From an uncultured archaeon (GTDB lineage Archaea > Iainarchaeota > Iainarchaeia > Iainarchaeales > Iainarchaeaceae), in contig CAZNZM010000010.1 in NCBI GenBank assembly GCA_964577555.1, positions 6,796 through 38,795 on the forward strand: DNA of 32,000 nt, in the 5' to 3' direction. Below are positions 7,575 through 29,443 of the stretch, in pieces (the stretch's first letter is position 1; each line of letters opens with the position of its first letter). The position numbers were made by a program, and so were the translations under genes. Below the pieces are notes generated by a model. That model saw only the letters and a list, made by a program, of their open reading frames with translations, searched no databases and was not told where the DNA came from.

Positions 7575-7882
7575 TGTAGAACTTTTTTTTAGTTTATAAA
7601 TAATCTCCTTTTTAATAATTATTTTTTTTAAGCCTTGTTTTTTTTTGTTTTAGTTGTTTTTTTGCGAGCCGTTTTTTGTCATTTTTTTGAATTCTTTTTT
7701 TTAATTATTTTTTTTGCAAGTCATTTTTTTTCAGTTGTTTTTTTTGTGAGCCGATTTTTTTAAACAATTTTTGTTTGATGTTTTATTTTTTTTGCGAACC
7801 AATTTTTTTGTTGATTGGGTTTTTTTATTTTTAAAATGTATAAATTATTTTTTGTGATTTTGTTTTTTTAGACGTTGTTTTT
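7575..7882 (+). repeat. oligo(T)-punctuated mosaic repeat island A
   Basis: Runs of T6-T10 separated by short words (gcgagcc, gtcat, gaattc, aatta, gcaagtca, cagttg, gtgagcc, gcgaacc). 7665-7749 matches 12633-12722 word for word. Lies between the PAN stop codon and the promoter of the Cys-rich gene. Confidence 0.8.
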
Positions 7883-9061
7883 TTATGCAAACATTCTTTG
7901 CTCCGGTTTTTCTTCCTGCTTTTTTGAAAGTTTTTTTATCGCCTCATCAAACTCTTTCATACTAACAGAATTTTTATTTTTCCGCAAAGCGAACATTCCT
8001 GCTTCCGTGCATATTGCTTTAATGTCTGCCCCAGTATGTCCTTCTGTTATTTCAGCTAGTTTTCTTAAATCAACGTTTTTTTCAATGTTCATTTTTTTTG
8101 TGTATATTTCAAATATTTTTATCCTTGCTTCAAATTGGGGTGGCGATATTTCAATAATTCTGTCAAAACGCCCCGGCCTGAGCAATGCTGGGTCAATCAT
8201 GTCTATTCTGTTTGTTGCGCCTATGATTTTTACTCCTTTGATTTTTTCAAATCCGTCCATTTCAGCCAATAATTGCATTAATGTTCTCTGCACTTCCCTG
8301 TCCCCGTTTGCTGTCATGTATCTGTGCGATGCAACAGAATCAATTTCATCAATAAAGATTATTGACGGCTTTTTTTCTTTTGCAAGGCTGAATAGATCCC
8401 TGACAAGCCTTGAACCTTCTCCTATGTATTTTCTTACCAAATCTGAACCTGAAAGCGAAATGAATACTGAATTGGTTTTGTTGGCGACTGCCTTTGCAAG
8501 CATGGTTTTTCCAGTGCCAGGAATTCCATACAACAATACTCCGTTTGGTGGTTCTATGCCAAGTTTCTCAAATTTTTCCGGTTTTGTCAATGGAAGTATA
8601 ACAGCTTCTTCCAATTCCTGTATCTCCTTTTCAAGTCCGCCAATTTGTTCAAATGTAGTATCAGGTTTTTCAATTATTTCCATTGCATTTACCCGCCAAT
8701 CCCTGCTTTCAGGAAAAACTTGGGTTATACTCAATGTTCTTTGATTCATAGCCACTCTTTTGCCGGGTTCAAGCAAAGGCGCAAGTTCTGAGAGTGCTTT
8801 GACTAAAAAATCCATTCCATTGCTGTTTCTGACAATTACGTATCCGTTTTGCAATACTTCAACTATTGTCCCGACAATAAGTGGCGGGGATTTCAGTTCG
8901 TTCAATTCCCTTCTTGCCCTTTCAAGATCCAATTGCAATTGTGATATTCTTGCATTTGTAACTTGTCGTTCAATGTGTAAATTTCTTAATTCTTCTTCCA
9001 AACTAAAAGCGTAATCGTATTGTTTTATTTCTGGTCTTTTTGTTTCATTTGTGTTAGCCAT
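7883..9061 (-). CDS. pan: proteasome-activating nucleotidase (PAN, Rpt-like AAA+ ATPase)
   Basis: 392 aa. N-terminal coiled coil (LRNLHIERQ...LERARRELNELK), OB segment PPLIVGTIVEVL, Walker A GIPGTGKTMLAKAVA, Walker B IIFIDEIDS, second region of homology GATNRIDMIDPALLRPGRFDR. Confidence 0.93.
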   Translation of the reverse strand: MANTNETKRPEIKQYDYAFSLEEELRNLHIERQVTNARISQLQLDLERARRELNELKSPPLIVGTIVEVLQNGYVIVRNSNGMDFLVKALSELAPLLEPGKRVAMNQRTLSITQVFPESRDWRVNAMEIIEKPDTTFEQIGGLEKEIQELEEAVILPLTKPEKFEKLGIEPPNGVLLYGIPGTGKTMLAKAVANKTNSVFISLSGSDLVRKYIGEGSRLVRDLFSLAKEKKPSIIFIDEIDSVASHRYMTANGDREVQRTLMQLLAEMDGFEKIKGVKIIGATNRIDMIDPALLRPGRFDRIIEISPPQFEARIKIFEIYTKKMNIEKNVDLRKLAEITEGHTGADIKAICTEAGMFALRKNKNSVSMKEFDEAIKKLSKKQEEKPEQRMFA

Positions 9062-9104
9062 GAGGACACTTCTTTTGTGTTTTCAATCTGAACAAGTTTA
9101 AATT

Positions 9105-10613
9105 ATGAATTTAATATTAATAACTAACGGTTTGCATTGGTTTTTAAATGAAACTCTAACCAGTCTTTTAAGCAATAAATGTTTGGCGCGTGATGTTTTA
9201 ATGACGGATTTTTTCGCTTTGCTTTTTGTTTTTCTAATAATTTCTGTGGTTGTTACTTTTGCAATAAAGAAGTTAACTTTGCAAGAAACTTACTATGTAG
9301 CTTCTCTGATTAGAACAACCAAGCCAATAAAGTTTTTTTCAAGAATGGCTAGACATACAAGGTTTTTGGATTTTATTTCAACTGCAGGCCTGATACTTGG
9401 CTTTGGAACTTTTGCGATAGATTATCTTTATGGGTCAAAGCTGAGAGGTTGGAAAAGGTATTTTCTCAATTTGGCTGGCTTTTTAGTGCTTTCAGGGTTG
9501 ATGTTTTTAATAGATTTTTTTGGCGGAAATATTTTTTCAAAAAATGCCATGATGGGAAATGCATATCCTTTATTCATAGCTTCGTTTGGTTTGCTTGGTT
9601 TTGCAGGATTCACCCTTTTTGCACTTTTAATGCAAGCAATTGACATAATAATAAAATATTTTGCAGGTTCAAGAGCGTGTCCGGGTGTTGCTCCTTTGAT
9701 TCCCGGAGTTGAAGTTCCAAACGTGCCAATCACGCCGCCGCTTCATGCCTGGATTTCTTTGATAATAATATTAATAGTGCATGAAGCAATGCATGGCATT
9801 GTAGGAAGCAGACATGGTTTCAGAATAAAATCCACTGGTGTAATACTTTTTGGCTTTCTTCCGATAGGTGCTTTTGTAGAACCTGATGAAAAGGAGCTTG
9901 AAAAAGCCGAGCCAAAAAAATTGTTGCCTTTCTTGGCTGCAGGACCTGCTGCCAATCTAACACTGATGGTTATTGTCGGTTTTTTGGTCTTAGGGCTTGT
10001 TTTAATTTCAAATCCGCTTACTGATTATTTGTATCCTGGCGTGGCAGAAAAGCTTTCCAACGGGGTAAAAGTCGTAAAAGTCAATGATTCCGTGAATTTT
10101 TGTGGTTCGACATATCCTGCGACAGCAAAAGGTTTTTTGTTTGAAGGGGACATCATAAAAAAAATTGATGATGTTGAAATAAAGAGCATTCATTCAATGT
10201 TGTCCGCATTGCAAAAAAACAAGTTTGAAGAAAAAAAATTTGAAGTTGACAGAAATGGTGTTGTTGAAACTTTCAAAATAACTCCAAATTCTTTAGGACA
10301 ATTTGGATTCATGGCAGAGGCAATAAAACCAAAAGACGCTCAATTGCCAGCTGGTTTTTCAACCTATGTTTTTTTGTTTTCGTTTATAGTGGAATTTCTT
10401 TATTGGTTGTTCATTTTGAATTTGCTTGTAGCTGCAATAAACTTTTTGCCAATGAATCCTTTTGACGGAGGCAGAATAGCAGGCGTGATATTTTCACACT
10501 ATGCCACTTTTTTAAGCAAGGATGAAAATGAAAGAAAAAAGAAAGTGCAAAAATATTTGGTTTATATAATATTCTCAATTCTTTTGATTAACGCGTTGCC
10601 ATTGTTTTTCTGA
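9105..10613 (+). CDS. site-2 protease family (M50) membrane metalloprotease with PDZ domain
   Basis: HEAMHG (HExxH) within a hydrophobic helix, PDZ-like GVKVVKVND...GDIIKKIDDVEI, and a second metal/substrate motif NFLPMNPFDGGR. A TATA-like tttaaatta at about 9095-9103 overlaps the first ATG, so the in-frame ATG at 9201 (MTDFFALLF) may be the real start. Confidence 0.85.
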   Translation: MNLILITNGLHWFLNETLTSLLSNKCLARDVLMTDFFALLFVFLIISVVVTFAIKKLTLQETYYVASLIRTTKPIKFFSRMARHTRFLDFISTAGLILGFGTFAIDYLYGSKLRGWKRYFLNLAGFLVLSGLMFLIDFFGGNIFSKNAMMGNAYPLFIASFGLLGFAGFTLFALLMQAIDIIIKYFAGSRACPGVAPLIPGVEVPNVPITPPLHAWISLIIILIVHEAMHGIVGSRHGFRIKSTGVILFGFLPIGAFVEPDEKELEKAEPKKLLPFLAAGPAANLTLMVIVGFLVLGLVLISNPLTDYLYPGVAEKLSNGVKVVKVNDSVNFCGSTYPATAKGFLFEGDIIKKIDDVEIKSIHSMLSALQKNKFEEKKFEVDRNGVVETFKITPNSLGQFGFMAEAIKPKDAQLPAGFSTYVFLFSFIVEFLYWLFILNLLVAAINFLPMNPFDGGRIAGVIFSHYATFLSKDENERKKKVQKYLVYIIFSILLINALPLFF

Positions 10614-10744
10614 CGCTGTTAAATACAATTTTTTTTGGACAAGACATTTTTTTTTATGATTTATGCTTTATCATTTATTTTAAATTAAAAAAATTTATTT
10701 TCAACAGATTTGAAGTCTACATGTTTTTTTTAAATAAAAATTAG

Positions 10745-10764
10745 TGGCGGCTTTTGAGCCGCCA
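10745..10764. terminator. GC-rich hairpin between convergent site-2 protease and ftsZ genes
   Basis: tggcggc-ttttga-gccgcca forms a 7-bp perfect stem, flanked by an A run on + and a T-rich stretch on the minus strand. It sits 11 nt past the ftsZ stop. Confidence 0.5.
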
Positions 10765-10775
10765 AAAAATATTTT

Positions 10776-11837
10776 TTACAAGTAATCCAAGTCAACGTCT
10801 CTTTTTGATGCTTTTGATTTAGCGTCTTTGCTACTCTTTATGTATGGACTGTGTACTCCTGTAAAGATGCAAATTACTTCAATTTTGTTTTCAAATGTTG
10901 AATCAACTCTTGCACCCCAAATTACTGTTGCTCTTGGATCTATTCTTTCAGTAAGCAATTCCCCTATTTGGTTTGCTTCTCCAAGCGTCAACTCGGCTCC
11001 GCCAGTAATGTGTATTAAAGCACCTGTTGCACCGCCAATGTCAACGTCAAGCAAAGTGTTATTGAGTGCATCGTCCACAACTTCATTTACCCTGTCCACG
11101 CCTTTGCTTTCACCAACAGCTATAACTGAAAGACCTTTATTGCTCATGATTGATCTTACATCAGCGTAGTCAAGGTTTATGAGTGATGGTTGTGTTATTG
11201 TTTCGGTGATTCCTCTTACTGTTCTTGCGATTACTTCGTCTGCTACTTTGAATGCGTCTTGTATTGGCAGGTTTGGTACTAATTGGACAAGTCTGTTGTT
11301 GTCAATTACAATGACCGTGTCAGTGACTTGCTTTAGCGCTTCAAGTCCTTCTTCAGCTTTGATCATTCTTGCCCTTTCGAGAGCAAATGGATAAGTGACC
11401 ATTGCAATAACAATTGCTCCTTGCTCTTTTGCAATTTGAGCCACAATAGGAGCAGCGCCAGTTCCTGTTCCGCCACCCATTCCTGAAGAAATAAAAAGCA
11501 TGTCAACTCCTTCAAGGACTTCTTCCAATGCAGCCCTGCTTACTTCAGCAGCCTTTGCACCTATCTCAGGATATCCGCCAGCGCCAAGGCCTCTTGTAAC
11601 AGATTTTCCTATCAGTATTTTGGTTATCTCGTCGTTTATGATTGCCAAGTGTTGTTTATCAGTGTTAATGGCTACAAGTTGCGCTCCTGAAATTCCCATG
11701 CTTGCCAGCCTGTTAACTGCATTACACCCGGCTCCGCCTGCACCAATGACCATTATTTTTGGTGTGCCAAATTCCTCCAATTTATCTTCTTTTTTTTCCG
11801 ACGCCGTTGAAATGGCGCTCTCTACAACTGATTTCAT
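10776..11837 (-). CDS. ftsZ: cell division GTPase FtsZ
   Basis: 353 aa with GAGGAGCNAVNRL and the tubulin signature SSGMGGGTGTGAAPIVA. GGAGGAGAGGTGA ribosome binding site upstream of the ATG. Confidence 0.96.
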   Translation of the reverse strand: MKSVVESAISTASEKKEDKLEEFGTPKIMVIGAGGAGCNAVNRLASMGISGAQLVAINTDKQHLAIINDEITKILIGKSVTRGLGAGGYPEIGAKAAEVSRAALEEVLEGVDMLFISSGMGGGTGTGAAPIVAQIAKEQGAIVIAMVTYPFALERARMIKAEEGLEALKQVTDTVIVIDNNRLVQLVPNLPIQDAFKVADEVIARTVRGITETITQPSLINLDYADVRSIMSNKGLSVIAVGESKGVDRVNEVVDDALNNTLLDVDIGGATGALIHITGGAELTLGEANQIGELLTERIDPRATVIWGARVDSTFENKIEVICIFTGVHSPYIKSSKDAKSKASKRDVDLDYL

Positions 11838-12241
11838 GTGTGGTTCACCTCTCCTCCAAAAGTTTTGTACAATTTTGATTTTTGATAAATGAATCTTTTT
11901 TGCTTTTGAATAAAAAAGCTTAGATTCTTGTATAAATGTTGCTGAACTCCTTTATATGCGTTTTGTTTTTGATATAAGGCACTATTAACGTTATTTTACT
12001 TCACTAAACAAAAAACACACAAAAATTTTATGTATATTATTAATTTTTTGATTAATTCATTAACTCTATACTGATAAAAGCATTAACTCATCTTTGTTTT
12101 TAAAAAAAAGTGTTAAAAAGGCTTATTTTTCTTAATAGGTTGCTTTTTTTTGGTTTTTTGTTAAGTATTTTTTCGTTTTTTGGCTAAGTTTTAGTTCAAT
12201 TTTTATTCTAAATTTGTAAAATTTAAACGCCGAATTTAAAT

Positions 12242-12250
12242 ATTTATAAG
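12242..12250 (+). promoter_or_regulatory. TATA box for the SRP RNA gene
   Basis: atttataag lies about 20-25 nt upstream of the predicted SRP RNA 5' end, the usual archaeal TATA-to-start spacing. Confidence 0.5.
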
Positions 12251-12266
12251 TTTAAATTTAGTATTT

Positions 12267-12545
12267 GTGGGCTAGTTCGGAGAGGTAGCGGCTCTCTGTT
12301 GCCGGCAACCCGCTTCAGCCGGGAACGAAGCCACTGAAGAGGCATTAACCATATATTGATGCCTTGCCAGTACTGTGAACTTCTGCTCTTAAAGACTGGC
12401 TGTTTGGGCCAACCCCGCTAGGCCTGGAAGGGAGCAACGGTAACTCATTCAGTCGGTGCTTTAAGGTAAACGGAAGCGAGGAGAGGTTAAGGGTAAACGT
12501 CTTTATGTGGTTGCTGTCCATTTGGTGGCGCGCCCACACTCTTGC
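12267..12545 (+). ncRNA. signal recognition particle RNA (archaeal 7S/SRP RNA)
   Basis: Contains the universally conserved helix-8 core aaccccgctaGGCCTGGAAGGGAGCAACGGtaac (12411-12444), close to the M. jannaschii and E. coli SRP RNA cores as I recall them. 5' gtgggc (12267-12272) can pair with 3' gcccac (12532-12537) as helix 1. The region is GC-rich in an AT-rich genome. Exact ends are uncertain by about 10 nt. Confidence 0.85.
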
Positions 12546-12589
12546 AAAAATTATAAAAAAAATACATTTCATTTATACATTTCATTTTT

Positions 12590-13261
12590 TTTTACTTGGT
12601 TTTTTTTGTAAGTTTTTTTTGTCTTGTTTTTTCGAGCCGTTTTTTGTCATTTTTTTGAATTCTTTTTTTTTTAATTATTTTTTTTTGCAAGTCATTTTTT
12701 TTTCAGTTGTTTTTTTTTGTGAATTTTTTTTTATTTTGTTTTAATTGTTTTGTTTTTGTTTTGGCTGGTTGTTTTTTTTTGTTTCTTTTTTTTGAGTTGT
12801 TTTTTTTAGATGTTTTTTTTTCGAGCCGTTTTTTGTCATTTTTTTGAATTCTTTTTTTTGCGAGCCAATTTTTTTTGTTTTGTTAGTCAAGTTTTGTTTT
12901 TTTTACGAGTCTTTTTTTGATAATTTTTTTTATTTTTTGATACTTGTTTTTTTTGGTGAGCCACTTTTTTGCCATTTTTCTTTTTTTTGAATTCTTTTTT
13001 TTGCGAGCCAATTTTTTTTGTGAATTTGTTTTTTTTTATTTTGTTTTAATTATTTTTTTGTTTTTTTGAGGTTTGTTTTTTTGTCGGCTATTTTTTTTAT
13101 TTTTTTTGCTTATTTTCAAGTCAATTTATTTTTTTTAATTGTTTTTTTTGGCAAGCCATTTTTCGTTTTTTTGCTTGGCCAAGTTTTTTTGTCTTGTTTT
13201 TGCGAGACAATTTTTTTTGTCATTTTTTTTGAATTTTATTTATTTTTTTATGATTTGAATT
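12590..13261 (+). repeat. oligo(T)-punctuated mosaic repeat island B
   Basis: About 670 bp of T6-T10 runs separated by recurring words. Internal duplications: cgagccgttttttgtcatttttttgaattc at 12633 and 12822; gaattcttttttttgcgagccaattttttttg at 12846 and 12989; gtgaattt...attttgttttaatt at 12719 and 13021. The track lists no minus-strand ORF of 60 aa or more inside it. Confidence 0.8.
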
Positions 13262-13723
13262 TTATTTTTTTCTTCGGTATTGTTTTTTTATTTTTCCAGA
13301 CAATTTGCGTGATTTATTTTGCTTTTTTATGACATTTTTTTCTTTTCTTTTTTTGCTTGTTTTTTTGCCTTTATTTTTTTCACTCTTTCCAACAACCCTG
13401 TTTTTCGGTTTTTTCCACGCTTCAAGCGCAGCATCAATTTTTTTTCTTTGTTCGTTTCTTCTTTTTTCTCTTTCATCAAGCTTTGCGATCAACGAATTAT
13501 ATTTTCTGTGAACTTCTTCGCTGTGTTTTAATGCATTTTTTAAAGAAAGCTCCAAATGCCTTTCTTCCCTCTCTTTATGCAAACCATGAAAAACCCTGTG
13601 TAAAAAACCCAAAGCAACAGAATTATCCGCTTTTGTCTTTCTATATTTGGCTCTTTCTGAATGATGTTTGCTTAAACTTAAATATTTCCTAAATTTAATA
13701 TAATGCTTTTCGTGTTTTTCCAT
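13262..13723 (-). CDS. hypothetical basic coiled-coil protein with Lys-rich C-terminal tail
   Basis: 153-aa ORF, His/Lys/Arg/Glu rich (HKEREERHLELSLKNALKHSEEVHRKYNSLIAKLDEREKRRNEQRKK). The C-terminal 45 aa are mostly K. It lies 29 nt downstream of the 336-aa gene on the same strand. No family recognised. Confidence 0.55.
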   Translation of the reverse strand: MEKHEKHYIKFRKYLSLSKHHSERAKYRKTKADNSVALGFLHRVFHGLHKEREERHLELSLKNALKHSEEVHRKYNSLIAKLDEREKRRNEQRKKIDAALEAWKKPKNRVVGKSEKNKGKKTSKKRKEKNVIKKQNKSRKLSGKIKKQYRRKK

Positions 13724-13752
13724 ATGTGTATAAGCAATACATTTAGTGTTAT

Positions 13753-14763
13753 TTAATTCTTTTCAACTTTGTTTTTAAGGCTTTTTTGCACAGCTTCAAT
13801 TATAAATTTTATGATGGCGGCATAAACCCCTGCAATATTTGCGGCAATAACATTAAAGTAAATTGCAAGAGTGGTTGCCACGCCAAAAGCAACCAGAACA
13901 GAATAAAAATTAGTTATAAGCTCTATTTCTTTTGACGATTTTTTAATAGTGTCATAATTTATTTTTTGTCTGATTTCATTATTGCTTTTACTCAATTCTT
14001 CCGCAATTTTTTTCTTTGTTTCAGGATTGTCAATTGAAGAGGCAGTGGCATCAATCATTGCAACGAAAGCCTTTACATCAGGATCATTTTTTTGTCTTAG
14101 ATTATTGAACTGTTCTGTATTCATTATTCCAACCATCAACATTCTCTGTATGTTTAACGCTTGATCAGCTCCCGCTAAAGCCAAGTCTTTTGAGCCAAGC
14201 ATGTTCGAAGCTGTTTTTTCAACAAGCCCGTCAAATAATTCTTTTGTATATTTTTCATTGTTAGGAAAACCAATCAATGTTAATATTAGAAAAATCCCTA
14301 TTGTAAATACTAAAAATCCTTTTTTTGCTGATTCGGTTCCAGTTCTAAAACCAATTAAGTTTTTTATTTCGGATTTTCTAAAATAACTATAACCACCAGT
14401 AATTGCAATTGCGGGGATGATCAGAAAGGACAAAAAAACGGATTTTAATTCAATTCCAAACAATAATAAGTAAACCAGCCAACCAATAAATGCCCCTAAA
14501 CAGGCGCCTACAAGCACGTCTATTTTGTCTTGGCTGTGGCTTAATCCTGAAACAAGTCCAAACGTGATTGGCATGAAGAAAGTAAATGCAATTATCCAAG
14601 GAGATAAAACTGTTTCAGGCAGTTTTTCCAAAGACTTGAAGCTCAACCAGTCTATTTCCATTACCCCTGAAAAACTCAAAAAAATAGACCATATTATAAT
14701 TGAAAATGAAATTGCTCCAGTAAAGATTAATATTTTTTTAATATCAGCCATGATTTCACTCAA
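13753..14763 (-). CDS. hypothetical polytopic membrane protein
   Basis: 336-aa ORF with about five N-terminal TM helices, a ~110-aa polar helical insert (LGSKDLALAGADQALNIQRML...KKIAEELSKSNNEIRQKI) and a C-terminal TM. TATA-like aaatttaaataaaa on the minus strand about 40 nt upstream. Confidence 0.65.
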   Translation of the reverse strand: MSEIMADIKKILIFTGAISFSIIIWSIFLSFSGVMEIDWLSFKSLEKLPETVLSPWIIAFTFFMPITFGLVSGLSHSQDKIDVLVGACLGAFIGWLVYLLLFGIELKSVFLSFLIIPAIAITGGYSYFRKSEIKNLIGFRTGTESAKKGFLVFTIGIFLILTLIGFPNNEKYTKELFDGLVEKTASNMLGSKDLALAGADQALNIQRMLMVGIMNTEQFNNLRQKNDPDVKAFVAMIDATASSIDNPETKKKIAEELSKSNNEIRQKINYDTIKKSSKEIELITNFYSVLVAFGVATTLAIYFNVIAANIAGVYAAIIKFIIEAVQKSLKNKVEKN

Positions 14764-14882
14764 AACAATGTCTGATATTTTATTTAAATTTTTTACCTTT
14801 AAATTAGGATTCTGGAACCAAGCTTTTTAGAGAGTTTTATAAATCTATGGAAAACCATATTATTAATCATATTTTGATTTGA

Positions 14883-14955
14883 GCCGAGGTAGCTCAGCAG
14901 GTGGAGCGTCCGGCTGTTAACCGGAAGGTCGGTGGTTCAAATCCACCCTTCGGCG
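14883..14955 (+). tRNA. tRNA-Asn (anticodon GTT)
   Basis: GCCGAGG-TA-GCTC-AGCAGGTG-GAGC-G-TCCGG-CTGTTAA-CCGGA-AGGTC-GGTGG-TTCAAAT-CCACC-CTTCGGC-G. Complete cloverleaf, followed directly by cttttttatttg. Confidence 0.93.
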
Positions 14956-15711
14956 CTTTTTTATTTGTTTCTGAATCCAATTTTTTTGTCTTTTGGCTTG
15001 GTTATTCTTGGAGCCTGTTTATTTTATTTTTTTTTTGATTTTTTTGTTTTTTTTGTTTTTTTTGTCAAGTTGTTTTTTTTTATTTTTTTTATTTTGGTTT
15101 TGTTTTTTTTGTGAGCCATTTTTTTTGTGGTTTTTTTTGGTTTTTTTTGTGGGATGATTTTTTTTGTCATTATTTTTTTTTGTTTTTTTTGTGAGCCAAT
15201 TTTGTTTTTTTTTGTTTTTTTTGTCAAGTTGTTTTTTTTTAGACTTTTTTTTTATTTTTTTTTAATTATTTTTTTTAAATTGATTTTGTTTTTTTTTGTT
15301 TTATTTTATCATTTTTTTTGAATTATTTTTTTTCTTGGTTTTTTTGTTTTTTTTGGTATTGCTAGCCATTTTTTTGTCATTATTTTTTGTGAGCCATTTT
15401 TTGTTATTTTTTTTGTGATTTTATTTTTTTTATTTAAATTGTTTTGTCTTTTTTTGTGGCTTGTTTTTTTGATTTTTGTTTTTTTTGGCGAGCCGTTTTT
15501 TTTGTGGGGCAATTTTTTTTGTTATTTTTTTTGTGGACTTGTTTTATTTTTTTGTTTTTGTTGGCTTGTTTTTTTGGAGAATTTTTTTGGCAAGCCGTTT
15601 CGGACTTATTTTTTTTGCTTTGTTTTTTGCTTGTATTTTTTTCAGCATTTTTTTGAATTTGTTTGTTTTTCATTTTTTTGTTTGGCCTTTTTTTATGGTT
15701 ATTTTTTAATT
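14956..15711 (+). repeat. oligo(T)-punctuated mosaic repeat island C
   Basis: About 755 bp of the same architecture. Recurring words include gtgagcca (15111, 15191, 15389), gtcaagttg (15064, 15224), gtcattatttt (15166, 15376), ggcgagccg (15487) and gcaagccg (15590). Bounded by the tRNA-Asn 3' end and the stop codon of the 276-aa gene. Confidence 0.8.
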
Positions 15712-16542
15712 TTATAAGGTGTCAGAATGCAGTTTTTGTTCTTTGGCTGGCTGCTTATCTGCTTGATGACTTTTGTGTTCTTTTATTTTTTTAAGAGTCT
15801 CATAATATGCGCCTATAACGTCTTTGAGTTCCATTCTTCTTTTCAAGCCCAGCCTATGAACTTCTTGAAAATACACTGTTACGAGTCTTATTGCAACTTC
15901 TTCATCGCTTAGGTTCATCCAGTTTTCCTCCATCATTTTTTTACTAATCATACTTTCTAATTTGTTTTTTTCATTATTTTCTGCTTCGTTTGTTTGTTCA
16001 GTTTTTTTTGTTTCAGGTTCACTAATAATTTCTTCCGTGTCTTTTTCTTCTATTTTGATTGGGATTTTTTTTATTATTGTTCTGGTTTTTACTACTGGGA
16101 CTTTTTTTACGATTGTTTTCGTTTTTATAACTGGGACTTTTTTTATTATTGTTCTCACGATTGTTTTTGGTTTAGCTTTCACTTTTTTTATGATTGGCTT
16201 GCCTTTTTTGTATGAAGTCCACAATCTTACTGCTTGTTTGAATGTTTTGCCAGCAATTAATTGCCTTTTCATGAATAAGTTGTACTCTGAAAGTTGCTTC
16301 TTTGATTTTTTCTTTGAAAGCTTTTCCAGATTTTCTTTTAATTTTTCCATTTCTTTTTTAAGAGAAGCCGTTTTTGCAGTAACAGACTTGACTTTTTTTT
16401 CAGCCTTCTTTTTGACAGCAAAAATTGATTTTTTAAGAGCTTTTGCCTTTTTGCTTTCAGATTTAAGGGTTTTTTTAAGTTTTTTTAATTCTTTTCTGAC
16501 TTTTTTTCCAGGGTTTTTTGATTTAGAAACCATTGTTTTCAC
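15712..16542 (-). CDS. hypothetical Lys-rich protein with internal 12-aa tandem repeats
   Basis: 276-aa ORF. Lys-rich coiled-coil N-terminus, a segment LSEYNLFMKRQLIAGKTFKQAVRLWTSYKK, four I[IV]KK[VI]P[VI]xKTxT units, an acidic linker, and a C-terminal helical domain (VAIRLVTVYFQEVHRLGLKRRMELKDVIGAYYETLKK). Minus-strand TATA-like catttaaatac about 40 nt upstream. Confidence 0.65.
   Translation of the reverse strand: MKTMVSKSKNPGKKVRKELKKLKKTLKSESKKAKALKKSIFAVKKKAEKKVKSVTAKTASLKKEMEKLKENLEKLSKKKSKKQLSEYNLFMKRQLIAGKTFKQAVRLWTSYKKGKPIIKKVKAKPKTIVRTIIKKVPVIKTKTIVKKVPVVKTRTIIKKIPIKIEEKDTEEIISEPETKKTEQTNEAENNEKNKLESMISKKMMEENWMNLSDEEVAIRLVTVYFQEVHRLGLKRRMELKDVIGAYYETLKKIKEHKSHQADKQPAKEQKLHSDTL
16051..16197 (-). 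repeat. 36-bp in-frame tandem repeat (about 4 units) inside the 276-aa CDS
   Basis: On the + strand, tttttttattattgttctggtttttactactgggac / tttttttacgattgttttcgtttttataactgggac / tttttttattattgttctcacgattg.... These encode IIKKVPVIKTKT / IVKKVPVVKTRT / IIKKIPIKIEEK. Confidence 0.75.
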
Positions 16543-16611
16543 TTAATAACTATTGTTGGTTAAAGTATTTAAATGTGTTGTAAACCTTGTATTTTTATTT
16601 TTTCTTATTTT

Positions 16612-16917
16612 TTAGACCAAACCTTTGAACATTTTGAAGAATTTTTGTTTGGTGACTTTTAATTCTTTTTGTCCTTTATTGGTTAAGCTGTAAATAATCA
16701 TTTTGCCTTGCATAGTCTCCTTTATAAGCCCAGCTTCATAAAGGCTTTTCAATGCAGGGTATATTGTGCCAGGGCTTGGAAGTGAGCCTTTTCTTTCAGC
16801 AAGTTCTTTTGCAATTTTTTGCCCATGCATTGGTTTTTTGGAAACAATATAAAGAATCAAAAAAGACAACAAGCCTCTCATGTCACAACAACAATTATTT
16901 TTATCTTTGCATTTCAT
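16612..16917 (-). CDS. PadR family transcriptional regulator
   Basis: 101 aa with a typical PadR winged helix: LLSFLILYIVSKKPMHGQKIAKELAERKGSLPSPGTIYPALKSLYEAGLI. An unusual Cys cluster (NNCCCD) sits at the N-terminus. Confidence 0.85.
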   Translation of the reverse strand: MKCKDKNNCCCDMRGLLSFLILYIVSKKPMHGQKIAKELAERKGSLPSPGTIYPALKSLYEAGLIKETMQGKMIIYSLTNKGQKELKVTKQKFFKMFKGLV

Positions 16918-16931
16918 AAAATTATATTGGT

Positions 16932-16981
16932 TATACGATAATATTTTAATAAATTTACATAATTTTAATATCGTATATACG
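16932..16981. promoter_or_regulatory. inverted-repeat candidate operator in the PadR/nitroreductase divergent promoter region
   Basis: tatacgata (16932-16940) and tatcgtata (16969-16977) are perfect reverse complements. cgtatatacg (16972-16981) is itself a 10-bp palindrome. Both lie in the 90-bp gap between the two divergent start codons. Confidence 0.5.
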
Positions 16982-17007
16982 ATTTATTTTTTTGATTGGT
17001 GATTCTC

Positions 17008-17619
17008 ATGGATTTTAAAGAAATAGTGCTGAAAAGATACGCAACAAAAAGTTTTGATGGAAGAATAATTCCTGAAGAAAAATTCAAGGAGTTGGAAGAA
17101 ATCATAAGATATTCGGCTTCTTCATATAACCTTCAACCTTGGAAATTTGTTATTGTCAAGGATAAAGAAACAAAGGAAAAACTTTTGCCTTTTGCCTGGA
17201 ATCAGCCGCAAATAACAACTTGCTCCCACTTAATCGTTATGTGTGCAGATACTGATCTTGAAAGCAAGGTAAAAAAACTTGAAGAAAAACTTGTTGAATC
17301 CGGAGTTCCAAAAGAAAAAATAGACAGCCTTATAGAAATGATCTCAGGTTTTGTAAAAAGCATGTCTAAATCACAAAGGTTGGTTTGGGCTCAAAAACAA
17401 GTTTATATAGCGTTATCAAATGCAATTAATGGTGCAAAAGAGCTTGGCTTTGATTCGTGTCCAATGGAAGGTTTTATTCCCAAGGATTTTGCCAAGATAC
17501 TTAAATTGCCAAAGCACATAGTCCCAACTGTTGTTGTGCCAGTTGGTTATGCAAACGATACGCCAAGGCCGAAAACAAGATTTTCCAGAGACGAAGTTTT
17601 TCAAGATTACAAATCTTAG
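17008..17619 (+). CDS. nitroreductase family NAD(P)H-flavin oxidoreductase
   Basis: RYATKSFDGR near the N-terminus and SASSYNLQPWKFVIV, characteristic of the NfsB/nitroreductase fold. The track ORF starts at a TTG (16996); the ATG at 17008 (MDFKEIVLKRYA) is preferred. Confidence 0.85.
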   Translation: MDFKEIVLKRYATKSFDGRIIPEEKFKELEEIIRYSASSYNLQPWKFVIVKDKETKEKLLPFAWNQPQITTCSHLIVMCADTDLESKVKKLEEKLVESGVPKEKIDSLIEMISGFVKSMSKSQRLVWAQKQVYIALSNAINGAKELGFDSCPMEGFIPKDFAKILKLPKHIVPTVVVPVGYANDTPRPKTRFSRDEVFQDYKS

Positions 17620-17710
17620 TTTTTTTAAATAGGTATTCAACCAGTTTGTTGATAATTTTTAAACGTTCAAAATATTAATTTTCAAAATCAAATAATATTT
17701 TGGGGGTTTT

Positions 17711-18217
17711 TTGGATAGAGATATAGATATAATTTACAATTTATATCGCTGCCTTATACCTGAATTTACCAAGAGTCATGCTTTAATTTATCGCTTGCTT
17801 TGGCGGATTGAACCTTTAAGCGGTGATAAAATTTCAAAGGAAACAGGCATTTGCAGGGCAAAAACTTTTGCAATTCTCAAGCAATTAGTGATTCTCGGTT
17901 TGGTGAAAAAAACAAGTTTCAAGCCGATTGGTTACTTTGCAAGAGACCCTGTAGGTGCCTATTCTTCTTTGCTAAAAAAAGTCTTGCCTAAACTTGAAGC
18001 AGGAAAAACAAAGATCAAAGAACTTGTACAGAATTCTTCCAGCCTTAGCGGAGAAGTTTATTTAATAAAACTTGATGGCGGGCAACAAACAATAATAAGT
18101 AAAGAAACCCGTGAATCTATCACTGATAGAAAAGCTTTGGAAGAAATCAGGGCTGCTATTGATAGAAAAATATTTGGCTCAAACCCGCGCGAAAAGAAAT
18201 GGGTTATTTACAGGTAA
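17711..18217 (+). CDS. TrmB/MarR-like winged-helix transcriptional regulator
   Basis: 168 aa. HALIYRLLWRIEPLSGDKISKETGICRAKTFAILKQLVILGLVKK fits the TrmB-type N-terminal HTH pattern. TTG start preceded by tggggg about 5 nt upstream. Confidence 0.6.
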   Translation: MDRDIDIIYNLYRCLIPEFTKSHALIYRLLWRIEPLSGDKISKETGICRAKTFAILKQLVILGLVKKTSFKPIGYFARDPVGAYSSLLKKVLPKLEAGKTKIKELVQNSSSLSGEVYLIKLDGGQQTIISKETRESITDRKALEEIRAAIDRKIFGSNPREKKWVIYR

Positions 18218-18386
18218 TCTTGATTTTTTTTGTTTAGCCGAGTTTTTTTGAATCATTTTTGTTTCTTCCGCGTGTTTTTTTTACATGTTTTTGTGATTGT
18301 TTTTTTGTAAGTTGTTTTCTTATTTTGTAATTTGCGAGCCAAGTTTTTTGGACACTTATTTTTTTATTAGTTATAATAATTTTTTT
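18218..18386 (+). repeat. oligo(T)-punctuated repeat island D (short)
   Basis: Same vocabulary (tttgcgagccaagttttttgg at about 18341-18361; tgtttagccgagtttttttg) between the convergent stop codons of the TrmB-like and VirB4-like genes. Confidence 0.6.
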
Positions 18387-20087
18387 TCAGCTTGGCTTCG
18401 TATTTACTAAGTTAAGTTCTTTTTCCGAGGCTATTACATTTAATGGAATATGGTCATTCATTGCGATGAGTATTCCTTCTCCTGGTTGGGCATTGAGCAG
18501 AATGTTTTGTTCCGAAGGATTGAGCATAAATTTTTCAGCTATTTGGTCAATTGCCCCGGCTTCTTGGCGTCCGAAAAATTTCCACGCGGTGTTTGAGATT
18601 ATTGTATTTCCTGCATTTGTTGATAAAAGGTCTTGCGCTTCTTGTGTTATAATAATTATTCCCATATTGAATTTTCTTGAAGTTTTTACTAGTTCAAAAA
18701 TGCGATTTGCATGTTCCGCATATTTTAGCAAAGACCATGCTTCGTCAACAACAAGAATTTTTTTTCCTTTTTCAGAGCGCATTTTTCCATGGATATACTC
18801 CATAATGAGAAACATTATTGCTGGTTTAAGCGCTTCGGGCATTTCAGATATGTTAAAACAGACTATTTTTTTATCAGAGAATTGTGCAGTGTGTTTGTCC
18901 ATAAAAGAAAAAGAGCCATTGACAAAAATATTAAGCCTGCTTTCAAGTATTGAAAACGTACGTTTTTCATATTTTGCGGCTTTCTTCAATTCTTTTGATA
19001 TTTCAAAAAATAGATCGCTTATTAAAGGCGGTTGTCTTTTCCAACTTTCAGGGTTATTGTGAAAAATTCCTTTGTCACTATAAATTTTTTGTATGGCTTT
19101 GTCGAGAATTGATTTTTGTTCTTCGTTCAAATTTCCTAAAAGTATTCCGAAAAAATCTATTAATGAAAGAACCTTTTCGCCAAAGTCGATTCCGGCCATA
19201 TCAAAAGGATTTATTGCCTTTCCGCTTTTTGCACTTATTTCAACTACTTCCCCACCATATTTTGAAGTCAGTGCAGAGTATTCGCCTTGCGGATCAATTA
19301 TTATTACTTTGATTCCGATAAATTGGCTTCTTAATATTAAAAGCTTTGCCAATACGCTTTTTCCCCCTCCTGAAGTTCCAAGAATAAGTCCATTATAATT
19401 GGCTAAACTGAATGGGTTTATTATTATGGGAATTTTATTAATCGAGTTTGAGCCGAATAAAATGCCTTCCTCGTCAATATTCAAAAAAGAAGTCGTAAAA
19501 GGAAAGCAGGCAGCCAATGCTGAAGAAGTTATATTTCTGTTGATTTTTAGCAAATCTTTTTGTATTGGAAGGCACGATTTTACAGCTTCATACATTCTCA
19601 TAAACGGTATTTTTGGCACTATCATTATTGAATTCATTTCAGCGCATACTTTTTTTGATGCTATTTCAAGCGATTCCTTGTCATTCGCACGACAATTTAC
19701 ATATAATGACATGTTGAACAGTTTTTCCTCGCCTTTTTGCAGCATTTCCAAAACATTCATTGTATCTGCACGCTGTATTCTAAGAGAAGGGTTTACAATT
19801 CCTTTTATTTCAGCAGCGGCAAGATCCGATTCTTGTTTCACAAGTTCTGCATTCAGGCTTGTAAGAACCGAATCAATTTCCATTGGCGCACAATGAATGC
19901 TTATGTCGAAATTGCCTTCACTTGAAACTATTGTATCAAGCCAGCCTTCTTTTATTTCTCTCGGATAACCTACTGCCATGACCGGTCTGTTAAATTCATT
20001 TCCTAAAACCATCCAACCAGGTTCGTTTTTTAGATATGAATGTGTAAAAAGACTTTTTATGTTCTCCATATAAATCACTGATTGCAT
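18387..20087 (-). CDS. VirB4/TrbE/PrgJ-family type IV secretion (conjugation-like) ATPase, core portion
   Basis: 566 aa. Walker A LGTSGGGKSVLAKLL, IIDPQGEY, Walker B KKILVVDEAWSLL, IIIITQEAQDLL. The upstream segment AVGYPREIKEGWLDTIV...ISIHCAP is typical of the VirB4 middle region. Confidence 0.85.
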   Translation of the reverse strand: MQSVIYMENIKSLFTHSYLKNEPGWMVLGNEFNRPVMAVGYPREIKEGWLDTIVSSEGNFDISIHCAPMEIDSVLTSLNAELVKQESDLAAAEIKGIVNPSLRIQRADTMNVLEMLQKGEEKLFNMSLYVNCRANDKESLEIASKKVCAEMNSIMIVPKIPFMRMYEAVKSCLPIQKDLLKINRNITSSALAACFPFTTSFLNIDEEGILFGSNSINKIPIIINPFSLANYNGLILGTSGGGKSVLAKLLILRSQFIGIKVIIIDPQGEYSALTSKYGGEVVEISAKSGKAINPFDMAGIDFGEKVLSLIDFFGILLGNLNEEQKSILDKAIQKIYSDKGIFHNNPESWKRQPPLISDLFFEISKELKKAAKYEKRTFSILESRLNIFVNGSFSFMDKHTAQFSDKKIVCFNISEMPEALKPAIMFLIMEYIHGKMRSEKGKKILVVDEAWSLLKYAEHANRIFELVKTSRKFNMGIIIITQEAQDLLSTNAGNTIISNTAWKFFGRQEAGAIDQIAEKFMLNPSEQNILLNAQPGEGILIAMNDHIPLNVIASEKELNLVNTKPS

Positions 20088-20095
20088 CCAATTTT

Positions 20096-20938
20096 TTATG
20101 ATTTTAAAGATGAGGAAAGAAAAGTAATTTTTCTCGGCTTTTCGAATTTTGAATTTAAATTGTTTCCGGCAATTGCAAGAAAAAGTTTGGCAATTTCGTT
20201 TTCGTCAAGTCTTTTGGCACTTAAACCGCCTTTTTTGAGTTTTGTGATGCAAAGAGAACTTCTTGCTTCCAGCAAACTTTCATCAAGGCTATTCTCCGTT
20301 GGATTGTCTTCTCCAACCACTATGAAAAAACGCCTATTTCTGACTGAATTTTTCCTATTGTAATTTTCGATAAAATTTCTAAATTCAAAAAAATAATCTG
20401 AGATTTTCTTATTTCCTTGCAAAGATGCGCATTTTGATGTTTTTTCAAGGTATTCAAAAAGCGATAATTCAGTTGTTCTGACAAATATTTGTATTGGAAA
20501 GTCAAGGGAGTTAAGAAAGTCTCTATAAGCAACTATCACTGATTCTTGTTGCTTTTGTGAAAGTATTTTGAAATTTATTGGAAAAACTTCTATAATTGCT
20601 TTTTTTGAACCATCATCCAAAATTAATTTGTTGTCTTCTATTTTTTTTATTCCCGTAAATTTTTCAGATTCTTTGTCAAAAAAACCTGATTCTTTTTTTG
20701 ATAAAACAAATGACAGGAAATTAATGGAGTGTCTTGAAAAATCCAAAAACGCAAATCCGAATCCAGCAAAAGCAAGCAATATGAGCGCAGTTATTTTGAT
20801 TTCAATGCTTAAATTTGTTTTAAGGAAAAAAATCAAGCCTATTAAAATAAAAATGCCTAACCAAAAGCATTGTCTTGCTGAAAGATTGAATATTATTTTT
20901 TCTTCATATTTTAGGTTTTTTGGTATTTCATAAGGCAT
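20096..20938 (-). CDS. PrgI/VirB3-like membrane protein fused to a VirB4 N-terminal-domain-like segment
   Basis: 280 aa. N-terminus MPYEIPKNLKYEEKIIFNLSARQCFWLGIFILIGLIFFL plus a second TM matches the PrgI/VirB3 pattern (polar lead-in, KI-F-L-x-RQ, two TM helices). The C-terminal part (LILDDGSKKAIIEVFPINFKILSQKQQESVIVAYRDFLNSLDFPIQIFV) resembles the start of VirB4. GAGGT ribosome binding site; 8-nt gap to the ATPase gene. Confidence 0.65.
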   Translation of the reverse strand: MPYEIPKNLKYEEKIIFNLSARQCFWLGIFILIGLIFFLKTNLSIEIKITALILLAFAGFGFAFLDFSRHSINFLSFVLSKKESGFFDKESEKFTGIKKIEDNKLILDDGSKKAIIEVFPINFKILSQKQQESVIVAYRDFLNSLDFPIQIFVRTTELSLFEYLEKTSKCASLQGNKKISDYFFEFRNFIENYNRKNSVRNRRFFIVVGEDNPTENSLDESLLEARSSLCITKLKKGGLSAKRLDENEIAKLFLAIAGNNLNSKFEKPRKITFLSSSLKS

Positions 20939-20947
20939 GTTTTAACC

Positions 20948-21964
20948 TCAAAATGTCTGCTTTTTTTGGATGTTTTGTCCAGCAAATTGCTTTGCAAAGC
21001 TTCCGTTGAATATTGGAGCAATAACCAAATTGCTTGCAATTTGAATTACCGGTCTGAAAAACGCAAATGCCATTGCCGCAACATTAAATACTCCTATTGT
21101 GAAAAACGCAAATGCTGGCAAGTATTGTGATGCAGGTGTGTTTCCTAAACCTATAACCACGCCTGTTGCCGCAACGATTATTATTGAATCAAAAAATTGC
21201 AACAAAATGGCTACGCCCAATATTCCAAAAATGGCTTTTCCAAATTGTTTGAGCGGTGGTGTAAAATAACTGAAAATCCCTATTGGAAGTATTGCTGTTC
21301 CAACAAGCAAAATTATTTGCCTGAAAAAAAGTGTGAATCCTGCAAAACCCGCCGCAAAAATTAGAAATATTATTAATAAAGGGTTGCTGTTTTGCATTAC
21401 TGGAAAAATAAGTTTTTCAGGATGATTTCCAAGAACATGAGATGCAGCCAAGGTTCCTATTTCTATTAATATTTTGTATAAATCAAATGATGCAGAAATA
21501 ATAATCATTGATATTATCACTCCTTTGATTAATTCTTTGGCTTCTGCTCTTTTGGCATGGTTTTCAAATGCAATTATAAAAAATAATCCTGCGACAGACA
21601 AATTCATCAAGTAAAACAAGGAAATTAATGCTATTACCGAACTCCAAATGTTTCGCATTGGTTCAATGTCAGGCGGGGAAGCAAGCAACAAATAAAAAAG
21701 TTGAGTAAGAGGGGAACCAAATTCATTTAAAGAATTTTCAAAATAATTTTTGAACAAATCAAAGCCTTGTTGCGGGAGTTTTCCGGTAAAATCCTTGATT
21801 TGGTTGGTTGCACCGCTTATTGCATTTATAACTCCACTTATATCAATATTTATTAAGGGATTTACGATAATTGGGGTTTCATTTTTTGCAGAAAATGCTG
21901 ATTGGGAGTTGAAGAGCAGGCATAAGAAAACAATTGGAAGAAAGAACCAAAAAAATTTATCCAT
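20948..21964 (-). CDS. VirB6/TrbL-like polytopic membrane protein (by topology and context)
   Basis: 338 aa. Signal/anchor MDKFFWFFLPIVFLCLLFNSQSAFSA, a ~60-aa polar loop, then at least six hydrophobic helices. GGGAGGG ribosome binding site; 9-nt gap to the next gene. The assignment rests on topology and operon position, not on motifs. Confidence 0.55.
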   Translation of the reverse strand: MDKFFWFFLPIVFLCLLFNSQSAFSAKNETPIIVNPLINIDISGVINAISGATNQIKDFTGKLPQQGFDLFKNYFENSLNEFGSPLTQLFYLLLASPPDIEPMRNIWSSVIALISLFYLMNLSVAGLFFIIAFENHAKRAEAKELIKGVIISMIIISASFDLYKILIEIGTLAASHVLGNHPEKLIFPVMQNSNPLLIIFLIFAAGFAGFTLFFRQIILLVGTAILPIGIFSYFTPPLKQFGKAIFGILGVAILLQFFDSIIIVAATGVVIGLGNTPASQYLPAFAFFTIGVFNVAAMAFAFFRPVIQIASNLVIAPIFNGSFAKQFAGQNIQKKQTF

Positions 21965-21982
21965 AGCCTGCCCTCCCGGGTT

Positions 21983-22282
21983 TCATGGGGATGTAAGATA
22001 ATTTACAACAAGTGGAGCCACCCAAACCAGTACAAGCCCTACAATAGCGTATGACACCATTGATTTTGCATTTTCCCTTGTTTGAATGTTATTGCCAGAA
22101 AACATGTACATTGCTCCGGCGGCTGTTATCGCTATTACTCCAAGAACCGAAATTATTGCTTTCATCAAATCATAGATTTTTGTTATCGGCTCTTTGATTT
22201 TTTCCATATCACTTGTTGTTTCAGCTAAGCAAAAACCTGAAAGCAATATAGTTGCAATAAGAATTGTTGTAATAGTTTTCAT
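21983..22282 (-). CDS. VirB2/TrbC/CedA1-like pilin candidate
   Basis: 99 aa. Signal peptide MKTITTILIATILLSGFCLA|ETT, then a short amphipathic segment and two hydrophobic helices (AIISVLGVIAITAAGAMYMF and MVSYAIVGLVLVWVAPLVV) joined by the polar loop SGNNIQTRENAKS. This is the canonical conjugative-pilin hairpin. First gene of the operon, with GGAGGTG upstream. Confidence 0.6.
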   Translation of the reverse strand: MKTITTILIATILLSGFCLAETTSDMEKIKEPITKIYDLMKAIISVLGVIAITAAGAMYMFSGNNIQTRENAKSMVSYAIVGLVLVWVAPLVVNYLTSP

Positions 22283-29291: not shown

Positions 29292-29443
29292 GCGAGGGTG
29301 GCAGAGTGGTCTAATGCGGCGGCCTGCTAACAATTTTCCTTCTCAAAATCAAATTTCATTTGTTGTATTATTTTTTTTGGAAAGGAAAAAGGCTGCGAGC
29401 CGTTACTCGAAAGGGTGCACGGGTTCGAATCCCGTCCCTCGCG
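29292..29443 (+). tRNA. tRNA-Ser (anticodon GCT) with a 68-nt intron at 37/38 (intron about 29330-29397)
   Basis: Exon 1: GCGAGGG-TG-GCA-GAGTGGTCTAA-TGC-G-GCGGC-CTGCTA. Exon 2: A-GCCGT, variable arm ACTC-GAAA-GGGT, T arm ACGGG-TTCGAAT-CCCGT, acceptor CCCTCGC, discriminator G. T-run follows. The intron boundary is ambiguous by 1 nt (A on both sides). Confidence 0.88.

Follow-up and report, generated by a model that had tools for sequence, protein, structure and literature searches.

Polar oligo(T) islands behind minus-strand genes of a Diapherotrites-like archaeon, a candidate family of hypermutable simple-sequence repeats

The islands and their composition

The stretch of archaeal DNA analysed here (the window, 32,000 nt in full) carries four islands, I1 to I4, in which T runs alternate with short words on the plus strand (Table 1). 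The window genome was examined over ~39 kb and its relatives over ~26 kb. The closest named homologues of the proteasome-activating nucleotidase (PAN) encoded next to I1 belong to Candidatus Diapherotrites (DPANN group), and the host is, judging from sequence, a Diapherotrites-like DPANN archaeon. The region also encodes an M50 protease, FtsZ, a PadR-like regulator, a nitroreductase, TrbC/PrgI-like proteins and a ribonucleotide reductase.

Table 1. Coordinates of the islands, their shared module and the adjoining genes in the window.
Feature	Position	Strand	Remark
I1	7575..7882	-	PAN stop codon to conserved promoter region of 530-aa gene; gene-sense strand A-rich
I1/I2 module, I1 copy	7665..7749	-	cgagccg-gtca-gaattc-aatta-gcaagtca-cagttg-gtga
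PAN	7883..9061	-	stop codon abuts I1
Archaeal signal recognition particle (SRP) RNA	12265..12539	+	converges on I2; confirmed
Non-island patch	12540..12584	-	A5 and A8 on plus, equal to T8 and T5 on minus
I2	12585..13261	-	SRP RNA gene to stop codon of 153-aa open reading frame (ORF)
I1/I2 module, I2 copy	12633..12722	-	
153-aa ORF	13262..13723	-	Lys-rich tail of island-like sequence
tRNA-Asn(GTT)	14883..14956	+	converges on I3; confirmed
I3	14957..15711	-	tRNA-Asn 3´ end to 276-aa ORF stop codon
276-aa Lys-rich ORF	15712..16542	-	stop codon abuts I3
TrmB-like regulator	17711..18217	+	converges on I4
I4	18218..18386	-	TrmB-like stop to VirB4-like stop; 169 bp
VirB4-like ATPase	18387..20087	-	stop codon abuts I4

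An earlier reading, made from the sequence alone, had drawn four non-coding blocks at these places, each with its T-rich strand on plus and each meeting the stop codon of a minus-strand gene. All four blocks are present, and both the orientation and the contact with the stop codons were borne out. Left of the window, at a distance of 6.2–6.8 kb (contig L108, 1–614), a fifth member of the family, with the same polarity, lies 3´ of a 94-aa minus-strand gene. Inside this fifth island the JGI contig ends, and a T43 homopolymer at L108 8–50 is either real or an assembly end effect. One of the corrections that the earlier reading needs is that the T-run clusters run on into the Lys-rich 3´ ends of the coding sequences (CDSs). 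Its observation that three of the four islands lie between convergent units holds, as the SRP RNA, tRNA-Asn and TrmB genes run into islands and only I1 has no such partner. The claim that islands start right at the 3´ ends of RNA genes is correct for tRNA-Asn and I3; it fails for the SRP RNA and I2, where the first run, at 12585, is 46 nt off.

Statistics were taken over 1909 bp of island sequence and compared with mononucleotide shuffles of that sequence itself. The islands were tokenised at T-runs and the runs were collapsed; ungapped repeat finding is uninformative on sequence of such low complexity. The tokens are T5–T10 runs, with T8 as the modal run, between words of 1–45 nt. T6+ runs number 111 (54.6 ± 4.8 expected) and T7–9 runs number 96 (25.8 ± 4.3 expected), whereas T4–5 runs (38 observed, 70 expected) and T10+ runs (3 observed, 10.5 expected) are depleted. 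The excess of T7–9 runs, combined with the deficit on both sides of it, indicates a focused run length beyond mere T-richness. The T-run lengths of CDSs, unlike this focus on T8, decay monotonically. On the plus strand one T6+ tract occurs per ~17 bp, with 7–47 tracts per island over 169–755 bp, and the sense strand of the islands is 66% A and 13% T. Seven or more T6+ runs cluster together at five places in the window, one of them inside the Lys-rich 276-aa CDS, and nowhere in shuffled windows; equivalent A-run clusters are absent from the window. The word GYRAGCC is found 12 times in the islands, always on plus, compared with 0.01 expected. The base that follows a T-run is G in ~70% and C in ~5% of cases, both here and in the sister lineage described below, and is evenly split in CDSs. 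The island pattern is real and lies far beyond chance.

Modules recur between islands and within them. The I1 and I2 copies of one module differ solely in T-run lengths, and the two islands have a 70-nt block in common after run-collapsing; I2 also repeats the cgagccg-gtca-gaattc part internally (12633–12722 and 12822–12851). Higher-order duplications with periods of 159, 127 and 102 were detected in I3 by Tandem Repeats Finder (TRF), whose rows have 59–90% matches and many overlapping periods; the one row with 100% matches (two 13-nt copies) lies outside the islands. A small vocabulary of words had been proposed. Recurring words do exist, but the vocabulary is only partly small, because ~65% of the word tokens are singletons.

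The 7–9-bp A-tracts are the dominant feature of the islands, and two islands come straight after genes whose products are very rich in Lys. Both features would suit a chromatin or nucleoid element in which rigid A-tract arrays exclude histones or bind the neighbouring 153-aa and 276-aa proteins. Such an element appears extremely improbable: the tracts show no 10.5-bp helical phasing, island size is not conserved (see below), and a property of double-stranded DNA leaves the strand polarity unexplained. A curved-DNA element was rejected for the same absence of phasing and a CRISPR-like array for want of regular repeat/spacer structure. Bacterial-type promoters or terminators were set aside as not enriched, and known RNA families were set aside as well, with no Rfam match within the islands.

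Reproducibility and turnover of the islands

The islands reproduce in independent assemblies, which settles the suspicion of an artefact that had accompanied the sequence-only reading. Seven contigs, each assembled independently, come from two JGI samples and one Logan run; all agree with the window without a gap, ~1.9 kb of island sequence included, and they differ from it at two single bases in total. One of these differences, at window position 12846, lies in an island, and no other such polymorphism occurs in the window lineage. It is a substitution bordering a T7 run that turns g-aattc into t-aattc in the JGI contig and lengthens the T-run by one. The islands are no assembly artefact, and homopolymer sequencing error is ruled out by the gap-free agreement of the independent contigs. 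Many contigs terminate inside islands, as is expected where assemblers meet shared repeats.

A sister lineage, R (L107/L372), is fully syntenic with the window. Its flanking genes are 86–91% identical to those of the window at the nucleotide level (78% for the 153-aa ORF), with dS of 0.49–0.64. Islands occupy all four orthologous sites in R with the same polarity; the GYGAGCC word is kept and the tract mode is T7. Island sizes differ between R and the window: 933 vs 169 bp next to VirB4, 440 vs 755 bp for the I3-type island and 650 vs 672 bp for the I2-type island, and the PAN island of R is much weaker than I1. Alignment of the four pairs of orthologous islands, given against a unit-shuffled null, yielded 0.43/0.43, 0.65/0.65, 0.51/0.50 and 0.18/0.18, and ordinary spacers of the two lineages are 64–87% identical. 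After run-collapsing, different islands of one genome share 37–70 nt and orthologous islands share 11–29 nt. On these alignments, which do not exceed the shuffled null, the orthologous islands have no positional homology between R and the window. The R islands have TRF periods of 170, 86 and 83.

Change on a shorter scale is visible in strain S (contigs L373–L378), which is 99.3–99.6% identical to R in the flanking CDSs. The I2-type island of S is collinear with that of R, and 12 of its 40 aligned tracts (30%) are altered in length by 1–2 nt. It also carries substitutions in four words, one new T8 run and block insertions of ~60 and ~95 nt. The I3-type island is replaced past a breakpoint ~60 nt from tRNA-Asn. 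The PAN island of S diverges abruptly from that of R 85 nt after the stop codon, and past this junction it is a copy of the block that starts at the VirB4 stop codon, 11 kb away. The copied block spans at least 235 nt, with 223 matches, 1 mismatch, run-length changes and one 23-nt deletion. A 31-mer across the junction was found in three independent assemblies and is absent from R (L372), and within R the PAN and VirB4 islands share at most 12 nt exactly; a mis-join is therefore unlikely. The VirB4-proximal block is still beside VirB4 in the S population (L376), so the transfer was duplicative. The boundaries of shared blocks fall in common tracts or words. Local duplications of ~80–170 bp were also observed (TRF).

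The block copying makes a repeat family the best supported of the four explanations first offered, with the hallmarks of a transposon absent. The duplicative transfer seen in near-identical strains (at least 235 nt, over 11 kb), its abrupt junction, the mosaic make-up and the extragenic 3´ location would all be compatible with a non-autonomous element mobilised by a dedicated recombinase or transposase that targets A/T tracts after stop codons, by analogy with REP/BIME and RAYT. This mechanism is very unlikely. The islands lack terminal inverted repeats, hairpins (by inverted-repeat and folding analysis) and any recognisable target-site duplication, the copied block having its right junction past the contig ends. 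Inverted-repeat pairs number zero in I3 and elsewhere are just trivial A-run/T-run pairings. No transposase gene and no RAYT-like (IS200/IS605-like) gene was found among the proteins of the ~39 kb examined, and the block boundaries in shared tracts and words are those that homology-driven copying predicts.

Islands of this kind are not shared by more distant Diapherotrites relatives (PAN 69–74% identical, GC 31–47%), in which PAN is directly followed by the next gene. One genome of Ca. Diapherotrites (GCA_038895675.1; L366 17746–17972) has a weak one-strand T-run cluster, with 9 T6+ runs in 227 bp and the words agccg+T6 and ggcttgg. This cluster lies in a divergent promoter region, upstream of an orthologue (33% identity) of the 336-aa gene of the window, and may be a diluted relative of the islands.

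The islands fit no single known family, because at least one defining feature of each of the closest systems fails, yet they are not categorically new. The tandem repeats of Borgs (Methanoperedens) are archaeal, genome-specific, fast-evolving and variable within populations, their coding strand is enriched in A at the expense of T, and roughly half of them lie between genes or begin inside gene ends (PMC9879509). The units of the intergenic ones mostly have lengths indivisible by three, and inside ORFs they give rise to disordered tails (PMC9879509). The islands resemble them in sense-strand A enrichment, rapid locus-specific evolution and within-population variation. Compared with the perfect head-to-tail Borg units (at least three copies, at least 50 nt), however, the islands are irregular, as the TRF match range illustrates, and are dominated by homopolymer tracts of focused length. 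Borg repeats are also nearly unique to their locus, whereas different islands have stretches of 70 nt (run-collapsed) and at least 235 nt in common.

The REP/BIME sequences of enterobacteria are extragenic mosaics of short motifs at 3´ ends or between co-directional or convergent genes, outside promoters; they differ from strain to strain and share a transcript with the upstream gene. Each REP unit is an imperfect palindrome that folds into a hairpin, and RAYT transposases mobilise these units. The islands are likewise limited-motif mosaics at 3´ ends and are absent from divergent promoter regions. They differ in the lack of palindromes and in an extremely asymmetric strand composition. Bacterial contingency loci turn genes on and off by means of a single run each, placed in a promoter or a 5´ coding region. 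The islands share with them slippage far faster than point substitution, and a one-base run change shifts the frame of the 153-aa tail, but they consist of dozens of runs and lie 3´ of genes. Unlike miniature inverted-repeat (MITE) and other non-autonomous transposons, they lack terminal inverted repeats and their shared blocks end in common tracts or words.

Database scans returned no further island among the matches listed. The genome contigs (pattern TTTTTTGYGAGCCN{1,3}TTTTTT) and the metagenome contigs (T7-N(1-14)-T6-N(0-2)-GAGCCR) gave single chance matches with these loose patterns. In the viral collection the word pattern gave 16 single chance matches and two highly specific module patterns gave none, and a word-free pattern, T7G three times over, overwhelmingly retrieved regular tandem repeats from AT-rich giant-virus bins. 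Many AT-rich viral and giant-virus contigs (IMG/VR L126–L244, for example L151, L226 and L143) carry one short word plus T7–T8 in tandem. These viral repeats are a generic low-complexity form, distinct from the irregular island mosaic. The metagenome contig Ga0307509_10023019 (L313 1672–6123, GC 27%) has nine T-run clusters in 7 kb; their common longer unit is atgcctttatggg-T9-gc-T7-ctttgtg-..., and this interspersed repeat is unrelated to the islands.

Coding potential and the gene/island boundary

Decayed Lys-rich coding sequence, one of the explanations of the sequence-only reading, found no support in the islands. The length of the word-plus-run unit is flat modulo 3 (43/40/40). Period-3 signal-to-noise is 0.6–2.9 in the islands and 5–30 in most CDSs, the exceptions being two short ORFs, the 153-aa ORF and PadR, at 1.5–1.8. 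Stop codons are present in every frame, and run-length differences between paralogous island copies are not multiples of three. A protein search with the concatenated pseudo-ORFs of the islands returned no match, and none of the relatives, distant or close, has an intact ORF at the island sites. The islands are non-coding.

A wider version of the coding explanation holds that the islands are decayed or slippage-decoded ORFs, or else a reservoir for Lys-rich tails and small basic peptides. All three sense frames are indeed Lys-rich, with KNGSQKK, KTARKK and KRLAKK recurring, and gene callers predict ORFs of 35–112 aa in the islands. The tail of the 153-aa protein is island-like, and one A more or less in a run changes its frame (NLAHKK or TWPAKK) and its stop between near-identical strains; a real H1-like protein of a candidate phyla radiation (CPR) bacterium carries the same DNA word. 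Set against the flat unit lengths, the missing period-3 signal, run-flanking bases unlike those of CDSs and pseudo-ORFs without homologues, these features leave the coding explanation highly improbable. The H1-like ORF (82 aa, Lys/Arg-rich, KKVARKKTTRKK...; L077 5400–5648, a metagenome-assembled genome of Candidatus Moraniibacteriota) was a chance match in the genome-contig scan, and its DNA contains GCGAGCC flanked by T-runs.

The boundary between gene and island is fluid at the 153-aa ORF, which has one other homologue cluster only among 5.8 billion proteins. The tail of this ORF grades into island-type sequence, and its Lys-rich end is not homologous between the window genome and R. In the S population the frame of the tail, NLARKK or TWPAKK, depends on one base of an A7/A8 run; the gene ends at different stops in S, giving proteins of 142, 146 and 150 aa. 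Every frame of the tail DNA encodes a Lys-rich tail. The protein tail of the relative has TTGGCCCAC, which is 1 nt off the island word and so no exact match. The 276-aa ORF contains an in-frame 36-nt tandem repeat (16060–16156, 2.7 copies of TIIKKVPVIKTK-like units), and this coding repeat of period 36 is conserved in L107 at 7885–7980, in contrast to the frame-free islands.

Several other features of the neighbourhood were recorded. The C-terminus of PAN, which usually carries a hydrophobic-Tyr-X motif, is ...EQRMFA in both lineages (window 7883–7900), so that the penultimate residue is not Tyr. A type IV secretion-like cluster at 18387–22282 comprises the VirB4-like ATPase, a PrgI/TraC-like protein, a 338-aa ORF and a TrbC/VirB2-type pilin, and is kept in the sister lineage. 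A 1095-aa HerA/DUF87 ATPase with an N-terminal low-complexity acidic and Lys-rich region extends from window positions 1–2200 into L108 5703–8990; the T skew on plus at 1500–2000 comes from this coding gene and marks no island. Rfam tRNA matches at 29292–29443 (152 nt) and 31433–31600 (168 nt), absent from the ARAGORN output, are presumably intron-containing tRNAs.

Transcription, polarity and origin

Archaeal terminators contain U4+ tracts, and two U4 tracts are the minimum for efficient binding of the termination factor aCPSF1 (PMC8716108). Termination efficiency rises with the number of U-tracts recognised by aCPSF1/FttA (PMC8716108; PMC7237163), although the published reporters cover 0–2 U4 tracts in 36 nt (PMC8716108). 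On the plus strand the first tract lies 1 nt after tRNA-Asn (T6), 7 nt after TrmB (T8) and 46 nt after the SRP RNA. These first tracts of I2, I3 and I4 (T≥4–5, non-template strand) directly follow 3´ ends, as in such terminators, and we infer from their position that they can terminate the SRP RNA, tRNA-Asn and TrmB transcripts. The islands as a whole differ from these terminators, with 7–47 tracts over 170–755 bp, and the tracts of each island read antisense to the gene at the adjoining stop codon.

A plus-strand transcript would stop within the first tens of nucleotides, and the island interior therefore cannot be kept as a terminator. The proposal of redundant terminator arrays accordingly stands for the first tracts of I2–I4 and fails for the interior, which would never be reached, and for I1, which lacks a converging plus-strand unit. 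The same facts bear on a selected one-way barrier or insulator, in which the whole array would be kept to terminate converging RNA genes and antisense transcription fully. The tract density on plus with none on the opposite strand, the three genes that run straight into islands and the published gain in efficiency with U-tract number are consistent with a barrier. It is quite unlikely nevertheless, as two tracts suffice for factor binding, and more distant relatives do without arrays. Other convergent pairs of RNA and protein genes also manage with spacers of 22–48 nt and no array. The convergent pairs without one are the tRNA at 29292–29443 and a 153-aa gene, the helicase and ribonucleotide reductase genes, and the malic enzyme and tRNA-Ala genes. 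First T runs aside, self-propagating simple-sequence DNA is more likely than a purpose-built terminator array.

In the direction of the abutting genes the islands contain almost no termination signal. On the minus strand no sense T5+ run occurs for 384 nt after PAN, 700 nt after the 153-aa gene, 1028 nt after the 276-aa gene and 217 nt after VirB4, whereas unit-terminal genes without islands have their first sense T5+ run 1–46 nt from the 3´ end. The T8/T5 pair at the far edge of I2 is the first sense signal of the 153-aa gene, 700 nt from its stop codon, and is conserved in R and S. Folding of the I3 sense RNA gave −35 kcal/mol over 755 nt (z = −1.35), and this RNA is predicted to be essentially unstructured. 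Sense transcripts probably cross the islands as unstructured A-rich 3´ or intercistronic RNA; I1 and I3 may be intercistronic.

Such RNA could itself be the functional product, an option already in the sequence-only reading with which the data are compatible, with the islands acting as encoded poly(A)-like 3´ untranslated regions (UTRs) or intercistronic spacers of minus-strand mRNAs and GGCUCRC between A-tracts as a putative protein or RNA site for mRNA stability, translation or localisation. The uninterrupted sense strand with its double U-tract, conserved by both lineages at the distal end of I2, the predicted lack of structure, and the retention of GGCUCRC, of C before the A-tract and of tract length despite turnover would agree with this role. 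Base composition alone, however, predicts the absence of sense T-runs (~0.7 expected, 1 observed). Five-fold length variation at orthologous sites and changes between 99.5%-identical strains are a poor fit to a tuned UTR, and GGCUCRC may persist merely as part of the most-copied modules. A functional A-rich RNA is accordingly rated unlikely. A similarly low probability is assigned to an undescribed archaeal cis-element, in which structure-free poly(A)-like GGCUCRC RNA modules after stop codons would be copied between 3´ ends and read by a factor, either an RNA-binding protein or the RNA decay machinery. As DNA, such modules would make the loci one-way for RNA polymerase and would, as a by-effect, supply frame-independent Lys-rich tails such as that of the 153-aa protein.

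The explanation that we prefer, with somewhat more confidence than doubt, is a lineage-specific family of polar, hypermutable, non-coding simple-sequence repeats whose bulk is tolerated. The islands would be mosaics of 7–9-bp dA:dT tracts and short words that fill the untranslated space from a stop codon to the next sense terminator or downstream gene. They would grow via tract-length slippage, local segmental duplication (~80–170 bp) and duplicative copying (at least 235 bp, between islands ~10 kb apart), and comparison shows these three modes of change. The simplest account of the copying would be ectopic gene conversion or template switching primed by common tracts and words. In the plus direction a polymerase leaving tRNA-Asn, the SRP RNA or TrmB would halt at the first one or two tracts, leaving the remaining array superfluous for termination there; in the gene-sense direction the lack of oligo-T signals would yield unstructured A/C-rich 3´ or intercistronic RNA. 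The copying process, together with selection against the inverted orientation, would maintain the uniform polarity, because inverted islands would end operon read-through at I1 and I3 or strip converging genes of their terminators. The bulk of the island sequence would then be a tolerated by-product of expansion-prone sequence and no adaptation.

One polarity relative to the abutting gene is common to every island of R and S and to all five of the window genome; all are also on one absolute strand within one syntenic region. Islands follow 5 of 10 minus-strand unit ends and 0 of 6 plus-strand unit ends, counts too few for significance. Several points weigh against the simple-sequence repeat family as described. 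The association with minus-strand 3´ ends is statistically inseparable from an absolute-strand effect, and the plus strand has a mild region-wide excess of T over A at fourfold sites and in ordinary spacers; a gene-strand and a replication-strand origin of the polarity are inseparable on the region examined. Tract mode (T8/T7), G after the tract, GYGAGCC, stop-codon position and polarity all outlive full turnover, and selection on these class-level features, instead of neutral drift, could be responsible. Their persistence is the main point left unexplained, and it keeps the functional explanations alive, whether as A-rich regulatory RNA, as one-way barrier or as reservoir for Lys-rich tails. 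Retention of 0.2–0.9-kb islands at all four sites in two lineages is also unexpected for junk DNA, because DPANN genomes are generally compact. Finally, gene conversion is what we infer for the copying, and a dedicated enzyme is the alternative.

In practice, the islands break short-read assemblies and draw spurious gene calls. If one of the functional explanations is true, the islands would be the first encoded poly(A)-like 3´ modules, or the first dedicated one-way transcription barrier, in archaea, and would provide a handle on the mRNA 3´-end biology of an uncultivated lineage. If the conservative explanation is true, they would be a natural example of the fast origin and spread of simple-sequence DNA and of its filtering by transcriptional polarity, set in a tiny and otherwise compact DPANN genome, with rates that can be read from strains: 30% of tracts altered and blocks copied at ~0.5% divergence of the flanks.

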